Numbered from the stretch's first letter, positions 35,959-40,963 are shown. The stretch: 64,000 bases of DNA from Crassostrea angulata (GCF_025612915.1 NC_069114.1:49578639-49642638), one strand, 5' to 3'. Notes: generated by a model not told the origin, from the sequence alone. Made by a program: numbers and translations.

Positions 35959-36070
35959 CTGTTAAGGTAGTACCAATTTTCCATCTTTTTGGAGGTGGAG
36001 TTTGCCACGCTATAGTTGTGTTTCTGCACCAGATGGGGGAATTTATGATGCATGATCTCAGAAACCAGAA
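35959..36070 (-). CDS. SPEF1: SPEF1-like A exon 2b (VLVSEIMHHKFPHLVQKHNYSVANSTSKKMENWYYLNR), 112-nt tandem duplicate of exon 2a, presumably mutually exclusive
   Basis: ctttcag acceptor, AG|gtaaac donor; same length and phase as 2a; inclusion of both would frameshift (224 nt). Confidence 0.7.
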
Positions 36071-37335
36071 CTGAAAGTAAGCACATGTGTACAACAAACA
36101 GGTCAAACTGAAAGTACGTACTCTGTGATCTAGGTACATGTGGGACGGGCTGTGTTCCTGTTGAGGGTTGGTGCTTTACGCAGTACAAAGATTGCCACAA
36201 ATATCACACAACATTAATTACAATTCACACACACTGAAACCCAATAAAACAAATGGCATTGGTCATTTATCACTTCTCTGGATCTAGGAACTAATCCTTC
36301 AAGTTGGCTCAGAAACAAGTTTCTGCTTGGCCACTCAATACTATAGCTGGTTTGAAGGGTATTAATTGGAAAAAAGGACAGCTAGATGTGTTTTGGTTGT
36401 AAATCAATCGTGCTGGATATAACGATCTCAAGATAAACCAGGTACATTAATTATGATGACCACAAGGAGTACATGTATATGTCTAGGGGCTCTTCATTTA
36501 AATCCTCATATCAGCCGAACTCCAATAGCCCACTGTGTAGATTTTAATCTCTACTGATGGCATCAAAATGATATATAGTGTTTCAGATATAGAATTGACA
36601 TCTCAGGTCCTGGTAACTATAGGCTTGCAGATTGTTCTTAAACTATGGCTACTGGTCCACAGTAATTTAATTGATACAGGATTACGGTACATGCATTATT
36701 TTTGTAGGCTCACTTTATACTAACAGCATAATTCATGTTACTACTTAAAATTAAACACTAGCTAGCTGGCTGAATGCTTTCATGGCTCTCCTAAACCTGT
36801 GCACAGTCTAACACTTTGAATTATAATAAGTTGCAATTTCATAGTCTTGGCCTTTTCAGAAATTTTCCCATTCATTAATAATTCTATCTAAATTTATTCT
36901 AATATATTAAATGAAATATTCTTATAAGAAATAAAAAAGGATATTAAGATGAAATAAAAGAAAAGAAAAATAAATATAAAAGCAATCTGAACTTAATGAA
37001 GTCAAAAGAAAATGTTCACCCAATGGTATATATAAATTATAAAAAGAACTTAATTTTTCACTCAAACATAATGTTATAAGAAAAGTAAGAAAACTAAGAA
37101 CTTAATATGGAATAATTATATGAAGATTCAATACAGATCAGACTAACTTGATCACCTGGATAACTAGTAAAAATTACAACAGACATTAATTTTCTTGCAC
37201 ACTGGCTGATGCGTGGACAAAAACAACAACTTAATTCTAATGTAGTTGTAATGGTGTGGAATTCCAGGTGACGTGAAGTTAGCTACAGCACCAGAAACCA
37301 TGCAGAGACACAGAGAACAGTGCAGCCTTCTGTAC

Positions 37336-37447
37336 CTGTTCAGGAGAAGCCAGTTCTCCTTCTTTTGGCTGCTAGAACTGGCCGTGGTGTAGTTGTGCAT
37401 TTGTATCAGCTTAGGGAAATAGTACTGTACTATTTCAGCCACCAACA
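37336..37447 (-). CDS. SPEF1: SPEF1-like A exon 2a (VLVAEIVQYYFPKLIQMHNYTTASSSSQKKENWLLLNR), 112 nt
   Basis: tcctgcag acceptor, AG|gtacag donor; matches human VLVAEVIKFYFPKMVEMHNYVPANSLQQKLSNWGHLNR. Confidence 0.8.
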
Positions 37448-38483
37448 CTGCAGGACACCAGAGTTAAAATTTAACTTCAAGACAATAGCAAAATTGAGCA
37501 TATGGAGTAAACTCATATACTCTGATACAAAATTTGGAAGAGGTATTTATTTCATCTGTTGGTAAGGTAAACCATTACATGAAAAGAATTTATGCTTTAA
37601 AAAAATTGAAATTTAGTAAACTTGTCAATAAATCAATAATCAAAAAACATATTTTCTGATAATGAAATTAAAGTGTGAATGTGATGTTGAAAGATTCATA
37701 GGACTTTTTAGTCGAGTTTTGGCGATACATATATCAAACAGATACTGGTACTATTTTCAGACCTGAAAGCAATTATTCAAAAACTTTAAATAACACACAA
37801 CAATATCAAGATATACACTGTAAACATAAATAAATAAGCCTTAATGTAAGCTGAAAAACAATTTGAAATTTATTACTGGCTTTTATCAAAATATTGCCCA
37901 TATTGTAATCAATAACAATTTTATGTATTATTGAATTTTCATTAATTTTTTATCACTATAATATGGAGAGGGCAGAATCTTTAAACTTAAGTATTTCATT
38001 ATCGCCACATTTGCAAAAGCTAATTCAAGTCCGTACTCTGATCAAGTTACTGGTCCCTTAGTTTCTGTCATCTAGCACAAAGTCCTTTGATCAGACATTA
38101 CATCATCATATACATGGAATGTTATTACATCATCATATACATGGAATGTTATAATTTGAAACATATTATCTGATGGATGCCACAAATATTACTTTAAGTG
38201 ATAATCATCATGCAGATGAAGCATCAATGCAACGTCTGCATACTTTAACTCTTAACAAAACGCCCATGGTACCAAAATATGAATGGAAATTGAATATGAA
38301 AATAGTCAAAAGCGCTGGAAAATATCGCAAATATACATACAGCTGATCAACTGATTTAATTGGCATTCTTTCTTTTTATTTTTACTCTTTTTTATATTTG
38401 TAAGCAATGTCCAAGAAAAATTAACAAAAAACTGTCATTATTTTTAAAAGTTAAAATCACAAGGCATAATTTGTGTAGCCTAC

Positions 38484-38625
38484 CTCCATCGGAGAAATCT
38501 CGGGCGATATTTTTCTTCGGTCTAGAAAGGGGGATGCTGTCGATCCATGTGTACAGTTGCTCCAACTCGGCGTCATCAAAATCATCTAACCCCGAATCGG
38601 TGGATTGAAGCTTTTGCACGGACAT
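38484..38625 (-). CDS. SPEF1: SPEF1/CLAMP-like paralog A exon 1 (MSVQKLQSTDSGLDDFDDAELEQLYTWIDSIPLSRPKKNIARDFSDG), start ATG at 38625
   Basis: matches human SPEF1 N-terminus EEALHQLYLWVDNIPLSRPKRNLSRDFSDG (CH domain); donor G|gtaggc. Confidence 0.8.
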
Positions 38626-39148
38626 TGTTCGCGGTATCTACATACACAAGTAAGTTTACGACATTGCAATATTGACGAATTTCTCACAATAAATTATCCT
38701 TTTATCACTAAATACATAGAATCGTCCATAGTTGTTTGGGTTGTCAACGAATTTCCCATAAGGCTTCACAAGCAATCGGAAGTTTGACATTTTGTTAAAC
38801 CGTTCTTTGTGTCAATATAGTTTTTTGTTACAATTTGATAATTTGATAAATAATTCATTTAAATGCAATGAAATTTTAAATTAACGTTTTAAATTCTTAG
38901 AAATCATAATACGTTTTTCATTTTTGTACCAAATAAAAGAAAACAAAACTTAGAACACTCTAACCAGTTCAACTTCCTTTTTGATATAGGAACTGTGGGA
39001 ATTTCGTTGCGACGGACGCTTTATTATGATTTTGTGTATTTAACGATAATCGTTTCATTCATTCGTTCGCGGCACCGCAAATAAACTTGATTGTTGATTA
39101 TAAGAGGTGTTTTGGCAAAGTGAACCGTGAATTGATCAAATAACAACC
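38626..39148. promoter_or_regulatory. Putative bidirectional promoter shared by head-to-head SPEF1-like paralogs A (-) and B (+)
   Basis: 523-bp AT-rich interval between the two start codons (38625 and 39149); inference only, no motif recognised. Confidence 0.3.
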
Positions 39149-39284
39149 ATGGATAATTACAAGTCAAATGGAACAAGTATGGCTGAATTCGACGACGCGG
39201 AATTGGAAGAATTATACAACTGGGTGGACAGTATACCACTCAGCAGGCCAAAGAAAAACATAGCTAGAGATTTTTCTGATGGAG
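39149..39284 (+). CDS. SPEF1: SPEF1-like paralog B exon 1 (MDNYKSNGTSMAEFDDAELEELYNWVDSIPLSRPKKNIARDFSDG)
   Basis: ATG at 39149; G|gtaaga donor; matches SPEF1 CH-domain N-terminus. Confidence 0.8.
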
Positions 39285-39948
39285 GTAAGAAACAAAGAAC
39301 TATTTTGAAATGAATTTGATTCATTTGTGTTTAATGACCTGAAACTGTAACCGTACGGGGTTTTTTTTTTCCCCCTTCAACTTAGGTGTAAGGAGTGGTG
39401 GTCACTGTTTATTACAGATATATTGTTTATTTATTTCAATCATTATTGTATTAGCCATTCATTATTATAGATTTTGAAGAAAAGTTTGCATAGTGTTAGG
39501 GAAAAATATTAAAGGATCGAAAGTCTTCCCAATCAAAATCAGTATACATGTAATAATTAAGTAAACAAAGAAATGATTCACTCAATAACTTCATTTGCTT
39601 TATACATGTACTGATTTACAAGGAGACTGATTAAACATGAATCTACATGTCTTGTTTAATTATTTGTAATTATATACAGCTTTAAATAATCACCCAAATT
39701 GGTTTCTAAAAAAATGATTTTCATCATTTGCATGAAGCATGCATTATAGAATTATCACTACAGGAAACAATTTCCATAATTGATCATCCATTTATGCACA
39801 CTTTTGCATATTTAACACTGAAGAATTTAGATTAAAAGCCATTTACTGCTTCTTCTGTGTTTTATGCATGCAATGTGCAACATAAGCTTATAATCACTGC
39901 ATGCTGTTACTGTGTAAGAGACATGAACGGTTGATATTATTGCTGTAG

Positions 39949-40060
39949 TGTTGGTAGCTGAGATTGTCCAACATTTCAAACCACAGTTGATTCAAATGCA
40001 CAACTATACTCCAGCCAGTGGGCTAAGTATTAAGAAGGATAACTGGATGGTTCTCAACAG
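39949..40060 (+). CDS. SPEF1: SPEF1-like B exon 2a (VLVAEIVQHFKPQLIQMHNYTPASGLSIKKDNWMVLNR), 112 nt
   Basis: tgctgtag acceptor, AG|gtatcg donor. Confidence 0.75.
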
Positions 40061-40851
40061 GTATCGGCCACCTCTCTCCACCGTTTGATCGCTTCATGTG
40101 TTGTGTCTTAGATCTGTAGCATATTCATTACCGCATTCATCATCCGGATTTGTAGAAAGTGGGCAGTCAAAAAGTATATACACCTTAAGCATATTTTTTG
40201 CATCAAATAGCATTTCATTTGAGGTATCAATTATTTTTGTTTTTTTTGCATCAGTGTATCATATACATGTGTTAGATTATTTTGGGATTGTGAGACAAAT
40301 TGTTGAAATTTATGAAAAAAACCAATTACTGTAGATATGTATATGCACTATAAATTTTTAATTCAAACTAAGCAAGATAACCTCAGTGGGAACTTTGTCA
40401 AAATGTCAAATCTTTTTGTGTGTGATTTTGGGTTTTTATTTTTTTAATAAAAAATGACTTTTATACCATGCCAAAATTATTTAATACCTGAATAGTTCAT
40501 TCATGCAAACCCCTGCCTCAAGTTTCACCCTAGGATGATGGATGTGCCTGATGTTGCAGTGTTAAGTTCAGAGTGTGTACTGTGTTGTGCTAGCAATGCT
40601 CTTATTTTGCACAGAGATGTTCAAAGACTATAATCATGCATCAATTTCAGATGTTTCATACTAAAATAAAATTCAGTTTTGATCACTGCACTGTCATTCA
40701 CGTTCAGTTTGACATTTTATTGAAGTACCTTTGCATCAAATAAGATTCCTTTTTGCAGACTTTTGAACATCCCTGTGCCAACTCTCTTCTCTATTATCTG
40801 ATCTTAGTTCTTCTTCAGCTCTGGAATTAGTTTGTTGTTGGTTGTTTTCAG

Positions 40852-40963
40852 TCCTGGTAGCAGAGATCATACACTATAAGTTCCCTACACTGGTGGAACT
40901 CCACAACTACTCCCCAGCCAGTGCAACAGATAAAAAGTTGCTGAACTGGGCAGTTCTCAACAG
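40852..40963 (+). CDS. SPEF1: SPEF1-like B exon 2b (VLVAEIIHYKFPTLVELHNYSPASATDKKLLNWAVLNR), tandem duplicate, presumably mutually exclusive with 2a
   Basis: gttttcag acceptor, AG|gtaaag donor; identical length/phase to 2a. Confidence 0.7.

Follow-up and report, generated by a model that had tools for sequence, protein, structure and literature searches.

Oyster SPEF1 genes raise a simple question: when a gene holds two homologous copies of one coding exon, do its messages carry one copy, both or neither? We examined this in a 64,000-nt stretch of the Crassostrea angulata genome (GCF_025612915.1 NC_069114.1:49578639-49642638; hereafter the window, with positions counted from its first letter). 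The window contains two head-to-head SPEF1-like paralogues, gene A on the minus strand and gene B on the plus strand. A preliminary description of this DNA, made from the sequence alone, had proposed that each gene carries two mutually exclusive copies of exon 2. We conclude that each SPEF1 gene has a tandem pair of exons, 2a and 2b, and that mature mRNAs very probably use exactly one of them. Extraction from the window showed the coordinates and strands first proposed for the four copies to be exact:

37336..37447, minus strand: gene A exon 2a, 112 nt, the upstream and weaker copy, with AG/GT flanks and one open frame
35959..36070, minus strand: gene A exon 2b, 112 nt, the downstream copy, more often assembled, with AG/GT flanks and one open frame
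39949..40060, plus strand: gene B exon 2a, 112 nt, the upstream and weaker copy, with AG/GT flanks and one open frame
40852..40963, plus strand: gene B exon 2b, 112 nt, the downstream copy, more often assembled, joined directly to exon 1 in transcript contig L001

The equal length of 112 nt and the phase of 1 to 2 noted in the preliminary description hold for all four copies. Each lies between exon 1 and exon 3 of its own gene, and is open in one of three frames, the one that continues from the phase-1 exon 1. A tblastn search of the 64-kb window with a human SPEF1 query matched the four copies (E = 4e-11, 5e-11, 2e-8 and 5e-8) and found no fifth exon-2 copy there. The length of each copy is 3 x 37 + 1 nt, not a multiple of three. 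Joining exon 1, both copies and exon 3 shifts the frame and reaches a stop within a few codons (...NSPGSRDHTL, then stop), so the earlier argument that including both copies causes a frameshift was correct. Joining exon 1 directly to exon 3 likewise shifts the frame and soon ends in a stop (...DFSDGEKC, then stop). Since the frame is broken with both copies in and with both out, exactly one copy is needed for an open frame. This argument forces exclusivity only among productive mRNAs; it puts no such constraint on the splicing step. The pair also has the features listed for mutually exclusive exons derived from tandem exon duplication (PMC3228551): neighbouring internal exons on one strand, equal length, same phase, homology, canonical splice sites in all copies, and single-copy use in RefSeq isoform pairs and Logan contigs. 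A length of 1 mod 3, with premature stops in both the both-in and both-out products, would further place it among exon pairs policed by frameshift and nonsense-mediated decay (NMD). In kind it is an ordinary, textbook case of mutually exclusive exons that arose by tandem duplication and are policed by the reading frame.

Mutually exclusive use, as first claimed, is borne out by RefSeq pairs at the locus and by contigs with A-2a, A-2b and B-2b. RefSeq isoforms differing only in exon 2 exist in C. angulata for gene A (2b, X1, XP_052706156.1; 2a, X2, XP_052706157.1) and gene B (2b, X1, XP_052706162.1; 2a, X2, XP_052706163.1), and in Magallana gigas for gene A (2b, XP_065924777; 2a, XP_065924778) and gene B (2b, XP_011443089; 2a, XP_011443090). 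Among isoforms derived from the window, that with A-2b was identical to C. angulata XP_052706160.1, that with B-2b to C. angulata RefSeq isoform P0146, and that with B-2a matched XP_052706163.1 exactly; B-2b is present in XP_052706162.1 and XP_052706165.1. In Logan assemblies of public runs, with full-length open reading frames (ORFs) counted, 15 contigs carried A-2a (8 distinct sequences, all checked), about 99 carried A-2b and about 295 carried B-2b. B-2a was found in one contig, from C. virginica (P0166), and in O. edulis RefSeq isoform X3. All listed members of the gene B clusters carry 2b, and contig L001 splices exon 1 straight to B-2b, skipping 2a. Transcripts with both copies, named at the outset as the observation that would speak against exclusivity, were looked for, and 0 of about 190 proteins or ORFs read had both copies or neither. 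Nor is only one copy ever used, the other outcome envisaged there, as both were spliced in transcripts or RefSeq models. Alternative use of exon 2 is already captured by public automated annotation; since RefSeq holds the isoforms, our finding leaves the annotation unchanged. A literature search turned up no article that deals with alternative exons of SPEF1 or mentions these accessions, and the exon pair appears to be undescribed in the literature.

We compared the loci of four oysters, C. angulata, M. gigas, Ostrea edulis and Saccostrea echinata. The head-to-head gene pair is kept in all four, with the copies always in the order 2a then 2b, and 16 of 16 copies retain 112 nt, AG/GT flanks and an intact frame. 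Across Crassostrea, Ostrea and Saccostrea, the ratio of nonsynonymous to synonymous divergence (dN/dS) between orthologues was 0.03-0.35 over all copies, at a synonymous divergence (dS) of 0.36-1.65. By copy, dN/dS was 0.14-0.17 for A-2a, 0.03-0.12 for A-2b, 0.11-0.35 for B-2a (dS 0.36-0.70) and 0.07-0.15 for B-2b. These values indicate that all four copies are under purifying selection and that none is a pseudo-exon. One could still suppose that one copy per gene, or at least Crassostrea B-2a, is silent or decaying and that its isoforms are annotation artefacts. Such a view would account for the weaker splice sites of 2a and for the failure to find any M. gigas (C. gigas) or C. angulata transcript with B-2a, either in a Logan search with exon 1 plus 2a or among the members of the B clusters. 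It is barely credible given the intact copies in four species, the low dN/dS of B-2a at appreciable synonymous divergence, the splicing of B-2a in C. virginica and O. edulis, the 15 independent contigs with A-2a and the conservation of the intron flanks of 2a.

The two exon types are also distinct in sequence. Four fixed residue differences separate all six 2a copies from all six 2b copies in both genes (gene A numbering): position 57 is aromatic (Y/F) in 2a and Lys in 2b, position 68 Thr and Ser, position 75 Gln/Ile and Lys, and position 77 Lys/Arg and Met/Leu. The splice signature of 2a is a CTGYAG acceptor with a GTACAG or GTATCG donor (for B-2a, GTATCG in Crassostrea and GTACAG in Ostrea and Saccostrea), and that of 2b a TTTCAG acceptor with a GTAAx donor. 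Amino-acid identity is 56% (A-2a/A-2b) and 53% (B-2a/B-2b) within genes and 69% (A-2a/B-2a) and 61% (A-2b/B-2b) across genes, and in a neighbour-joining tree the 2a copies cluster with 55% bootstrap support and the 2b copies with 67%. Fixed residues, splice signatures, identities and tree grouping thus all agree with the pairing of A-2a with B-2a and A-2b with B-2b put forward in the preliminary description. The further claim made there, that the exon duplication came before the oyster gene duplication, also stood: the sequences indicate this order because the four residues split 2a from 2b across both genes and because Mya, Biomphalaria and Lingula, each with a single gene, have the pair. The residue types and the tree point the same way.

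The comparison with other bivalve SPEF1 loci that had been suggested found the pair kept in oysters and present in Mya. RefSeq isoforms with a single backbone and two exon-2 variants occur in Mytilus, Mercenaria, Ruditapes, Mya and Dreissena, and three genomes beyond the oysters showed tandem exon-2 copies with AG/GT flanks and lengths of 1 mod 3:

Mya arenaria: copies of 112 and 118 nt, plus a third copy of 109 nt
Biomphalaria glabrata (snail): copies of 112 and 112 nt
Lingula anatina (brachiopod): copies of 112 and 112 nt

Lingula isoform X2 (XP_013403111.1) equals X1 exactly with the downstream copy swapped in, and the X1 and X2 isoforms of Biomphalaria and Physella differ only in exon 2. 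The feature is therefore far wider than oysters; we observed the SPEF1 pair only in molluscs and a brachiopod. In a deep tree of exon-2 variants across phyla, the 37 residues do not separate a single from a multiple origin, and the pair is either very old or repeatedly re-invented. Either way, it is informative on the persistence of tandem exon duplications. The third Mya copy (L006, 6607-6715, 109 nt) has AG/GT flanks and an open frame and lacks the HNY motif. An isoform with this copy swapped in was absent from the protein collection, and the copy may be decaying or may serve as a third alternative exon. Heterodont clams (Mercenaria, Ruditapes, Dreissena and Mya; P0171-P0240) have an apparent second pair of homologous alternative exons in SPEF1, located before the last coiled coil ('..PRIMLEEREQEVLAKDEM.K' vs '..PRY[IV]VEEKEQEVLSRDETIQ'), and an alternative C-terminal exon also occurs among their SPEF1 isoforms. 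Both variants of this clam pair stand in series in the Mya GenBank model P0212, which is probably a mis-model.

What does the swapped exon encode? All four predicted isoforms contain a complete Pfam CH_2 domain (PF06294; 113-122 bits against a cut-off of 27 bits, profile positions 1-95 of 96) and match solved SPEF1 chains (2ee7, 9ntm and 9nw3; E = 1e-35). The C-terminal coiled-coil (dimerisation) helix, residues 198-244, matches SPEF1 chain 9ijx_A (E = 2.5e-10). The domain, the structure matches and the RefSeq-identical translations all support the original assignment of the genes as head-to-head SPEF1-like paralogues, and the complete CH_2 domain obtained with either variant agrees with the idea that the exons provide alternative CH-domain cores. 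Exon 2 covers residues about 48-84 of this calponin-homology-like microtubule-binding domain. Nine tubulin-contact residues have been named for Tetrahymena SPEF1A (PMC11642885). In an ungapped alignment to that protein (9nw3), in which the oyster gene A residue is the Tetrahymena residue plus 10, contacts H55, S62, Y68 and T72 fall in the exon-2 segment; R25, K28 and R32 map to exon 1, and R76 and K80 to exon 3. Gene A has R35, K38, R42, H65, S72, K86 and K90 at the equivalents of R25, K28, R32, H55, S62, R76 and K80. The H55 equivalent is invariant in all copies. For A-2a, A-2b, B-2a and B-2b in turn, the S62 equivalent (position 72) is S, S, G and A, the Y68 equivalent E, E, D and L, and the T72 equivalent L, Y, V and V. 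Hence only the exchange of B-2a for B-2b alters the S62 and Y68 equivalents, and only that of A-2a for A-2b alters the T72 equivalent. The swap would change part of the tubulin-contact surface at the microtubule seam, and from the sequences it can reasonably be inferred to alter seam or lattice binding. SPEF1, a microtubule protein of cilia and sperm tails in the SPEF1/CLAMP family, strengthens the seam of central-pair microtubules in motile cilia, which makes this a natural variant pair for asking how seam recognition is tuned. It also raises the question of whether the SPEF1 version required by sperm flagella differs from that of epithelial or larval cilia.

We then considered what in the introns could keep the two exons apart. 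The 2a-2b intron of gene A measures 1265 nt and that of gene B 791 nt; in the other oysters the length is 804-2954 nt. When these introns are compared between Crassostrea, Ostrea and Saccostrea, only three kinds of block can be aligned: a stretch of about 70-85 nt on the downstream side of 2a, one of about 45-95 nt on the upstream side of 2b and, in gene B, one in mid-intron. The conserved elements and the arms of two predicted helices in gene B, S1 and S2, are as follows:

37262..37335, minus strand: conserved block directly downstream of A-2a, alignable among Crassostrea, Ostrea and Saccostrea
36071..36116, minus strand: conserved block upstream of A-2b, aligned with O. edulis
40132..40148, plus strand: 5' arm of helix S1, 72-88 nt downstream of B-2a, predicted to pair with 40530-40546
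40530..40546, plus strand: 3' arm of helix S1, in the mid-intron conserved block
40609..40626, plus strand: 5' arm of helix S2, at the 3' end of the mid-intron conserved block, predicted to pair with 40761-40778
40761..40778, plus strand: 3' arm of helix S2, 74-91 nt before B-2b, where a long pyrimidine-rich tract starts

The block downstream of A-2a forms a weak local hairpin only, without compensatory change, and that upstream of A-2b is, by consensus, a probable branch site (TTTGAC) with its pyrimidine tract. The arms of S1 and S2 are the best complementary partners in three of three lineages, and S1 of O. edulis is a perfect 16-bp duplex. In a four-oyster alignment, 90.7% of the cells in S1 and S2 were paired, compared with 31-44% when the partners were slid. 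Five pairs had changed on both sides, and covariation was 0.210, compared with 0.143 in shuffled alignments (5/500 reached the observed value). Both helices were recovered in the minimum free energy and centroid folds of the whole 791-nt intron of gene B. A search of Rfam found no known RNA family in the introns. Two other candidate pairings were rejected. An alignment fold had paired the 2a donor with the block upstream of 2b; in a scan of each donor over the whole pre-mRNA of each species, the best donor partners differed between species. Long duplexes between 100-nt blocks were loose, loop-rich and uninformative.

Conserved complementary intron elements between B-2a and B-2b could be read as a sign of competing RNA structures, in which one docking site and two selectors impose exclusivity as in Dscam, 14-3-3zeta and ATE1. 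The arrangement of the elements makes this very improbable. S1 and S2 have four separate arms and can form together, and no conserved third element competing for the mid-intron arms was found in the introns before 2a or after 2b, where the search gave only weak matches at non-homologous places. For the 2a and 2b donors, the best duplex partner varies by species, and gene A follows the same exclusive pattern without a conserved long-range pairing. A docking/selector search, which the preliminary description had recommended, thus turned up no such arrangement in either gene. On sequence grounds, the gene B helices appear to be a conserved RNA structure, not a docking/selector system. They offer a small testable case of structure between alternative exons outside arthropods and vertebrates.

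Two further mechanisms were discarded. Steric hindrance between splice sites in too short an intron is the type known from alpha-tropomyosin exons 2 and 3; here the introns are 791-2954 nt long. Incompatibility of U2 and U12 sites was set aside on finding that all sites are GT-AG with no conserved U12 donor, judged against the consensus. The best explanation of one-at-a-time use would instead have the frame rule as the main enforcer of exclusivity among productive mRNAs, with NMD removing the exon 1-2a-2b-exon 3 and exon 1-exon 3 products. For exons of a length not divisible by three, NMD is an accepted mechanism (PMC6071210), and because the frame rule holds, NMD policing would by analogy be the most economical mechanism here. 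Exon 2b, with its TTTCAG acceptor, good pyrimidine tract, GTAAx donor and dominance in assembled transcripts, would be the default exon. Exon 2a, with its CTGYAG acceptor and GTACAG/GTATCG donor, would be the regulated one, and the conserved 70-85-nt intron block just downstream of it would bind activators. In gene B only, the two non-competing helices would fold the 2a-2b intron to an effective length of about 200 nt and probably adjust the 2a:2b ratio, in either direction, or hinder the joining of 2a to 2b.

The same features admit a reading in which the exons are not truly exclusive: frequent double inclusion or skipping would serve as regulated unproductive splicing that lowers SPEF1 output, with the helices promoting 2a-2b joining. 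The premature stops in both-in and both-out products are compatible with this, as are the shortening of the 2a-2b intron by S1 and S2 to an effective length of about 200 nt in all species and an M. gigas isoform, X6, that starts inside 2b. We consider this account improbable. None of the about 190 proteins or ORFs read contained both copies or lacked both, both exons are under purifying selection at the protein level, and the four type-specific residues kept in both genes argue for two functional proteins. Within the preferred explanation, exactly one copy per productive mRNA, the swap could, speculatively, provide seam-binding variants for different cilia or flagella, such as the sperm tail as opposed to gill or larval cilia. 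A more far-reaching version is tentative and, taken as a whole, rather unlikely: a single switch predating the mollusc-brachiopod split (>500 million years) would supply two seam-binding SPEF1 versions for different axonemes, would have been kept through the oyster gene duplication, and would be tuned in gene B by the intron-bridging helix pair, not described before.

Several points weigh against the reading of exclusive, regulated exon use. Exclusivity was judged from RefSeq models and assembled contigs, and the RefSeq X-isoforms are computed models, on which B-2a in C. angulata and M. gigas depends. Assemblers favour the dominant isoform, so the contig counts, which point to 2b as the main form of both genes, are a crude proxy for usage. 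M. gigas gene A isoform X6 (XP_065924782.1, P0244) begins at a Met inside A-2b and may result from use of another start site or from a transcript with a broken frame, for example one with 2a and 2b. Splice-site strength was judged against the consensus only. The helices are drawn from only three independent lineages, and the whole-intron folding energy was no better than that of shuffled sequences (z = -0.54). The single-species complementarity score of S2 was not above shuffles either, and the case for the helices is therefore one of conservation and covariation only. For long-range pairing in gene A, no partner was common to the species. If anything, the helices would bring the 2a donor nearer the 2b acceptor.

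Like FGFR2 exons IIIb and IIIc, cited in PMC6071210, the oyster pair consists of two homologous exons of a length not divisible by three, whose double inclusion or skipping gives premature stops; in FGFR2 one copy is the default and the other regulated, as proposed here for oyster SPEF1. It differs from FGFR2 in protein and phylum and in being duplicated within an inverted gene duplication; NMD and regulators for oyster SPEF1 are proposed by analogy only. ATE1 exons 7a and 7b (PMC7797038) similarly form a two-exon cluster with conserved complementary elements in mid-intron and near the downstream 3' splice site. In ATE1, R1 and R4 compete for R3 (PMC7797038), whereas S1 and S2 of SPEF1 gene B are not in competition, no competitor turned up upstream, and gene A lacks helices. 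The arthropod clusters of Dscam1, 14-3-3zeta and Mhc share tandem-duplicated homologous exons used singly, but have a docking site and one selector per exon, often with many variants, which we did not find in SPEF1. COQ-2 of molluscs, annelids and helminths (PMC7434440) is likewise an equal-size homologous pair spread across lophotrochozoan phyla that swaps a functional core. For COQ-2, a physiological switch between rhodoquinone and ubiquinone has been demonstrated (PMC7434440), whereas the SPEF1 pair is known here from sequences alone. Human substitutions derived from tandem exon duplication (PMC8373072) resemble it as ancient, conserved, homologous swaps of a structured segment; SPEF1 is not mentioned in the main text of that paper. 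To such cases, this analysis adds selection on four copies, breadth across bivalves, snails and a brachiopod, and the mapping of tubulin contacts and of RNA structure in gene B.

The remaining exons of the two genes complete their models. Gene B boundaries were fixed by L001, a 1016-nt contig of a spliced transcript, assembled from a public run and 97-98% identical to the window, and the gene A model was built from comparison with its paralogue and from RefSeq and Logan proteins:

38484..38625, minus strand: gene A exon 1, coding part, with ATG at 38625, ending in phase 1 (MSVQKL...DFSDG, then GT) and equal to the N-terminus of XP_052706160.1
34582..34796, minus strand: gene A exon 3, the rest of the CH domain, from tblastn/tblastx matches and splice sites
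33324..33372, minus strand: gene A exon 4, with AG/GT flanks, from the peptide SPGRHKKGTSPTRAG of RefSeq and Logan isoforms mapped to the window
32086..32145, minus strand: gene A cassette exon of 60 nt, in frame, YFTRLAAENKEVITLDKLS, located with P0122 and XP_052706158.1
28812..28938, minus strand: gene A exon 5, from paralogue comparison and RefSeq/Logan proteins
27031..27147, minus strand: gene A last coding exon (coiled coil), with stop TGA at 27033-27031
39149..39284, plus strand: gene B exon 1, coding part, with ATG at 39149, ending in phase 1; L001 starts at 39074
42184..42401, plus strand: gene B exon 3, boundaries from L001
42733..42790, plus strand: gene B exon 4, boundaries from L001
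43077..43136, plus strand: gene B 60-nt cassette exon, FQGMSHYYPGLYEPSKFSQW
44014..44070, plus strand: gene B 57-nt cassette exon, NSMPNADYKEVVTLESLA
44992..45121, plus strand: gene B exon 5, boundaries from L001
45353..45472, plus strand: gene B last coding exon, with stop TAA at 45470-45472

The gene A cassette at 32086-32145 is homologous to the gene B cassette at 44014-44070 ('..KEV[IV]TL[DE].L..'), and a cassette with this motif also occurs in isoforms of Ostrea, Saccostrea and C. virginica. These 57-60-nt in-frame cassettes of both genes sit in a disordered linker, and a further gene A micro-exon, GLAAKSKKLFNR, is present in isoforms X1 and X2.

The start codons of genes A and B are only about 520 nt apart, and the two genes therefore probably share a bidirectional promoter. 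A motif scan found no RFX X-box in this shared 520-bp promoter; near-perfect palindromic X-box-like sites lie outside it, at 17477-17490 and 24923-24936 (GTTGCCATGGCAGC and GTTGCCAAGGTAAT). The first exons (38474-38584 and 39184-39294) form a 111-nt inverted repeat, 72% complementary and about 600 nt apart. Intron 1 of gene A contains a short tandem duplication, 'catcatcatatacatggaatgttat' x2, at 38090-38155. Strong negative GC skew (-0.31 to -0.43) and a raised G+C content (0.38-0.44) set 26001-30000 apart from the rest of the window, a stretch that overlaps the 3' exons of gene A.

A partial third SPEF1-like gene lies at 56986-59730 on the minus strand, with an exon-5-like segment at 59653-59730. 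Its CH-domain exons would fall past the end of the window, and at the matching place in M. gigas locus L003 a CH_2 gene is called. The last coiled-coil exon of this gene is present in three tandem copies (57805-57876, 57357-57434 and 56986-57066) that carry '...KIRRLEHL[IL]QLKDTR..'; they may serve as alternative terminal exons or encode a repeated coiled coil.

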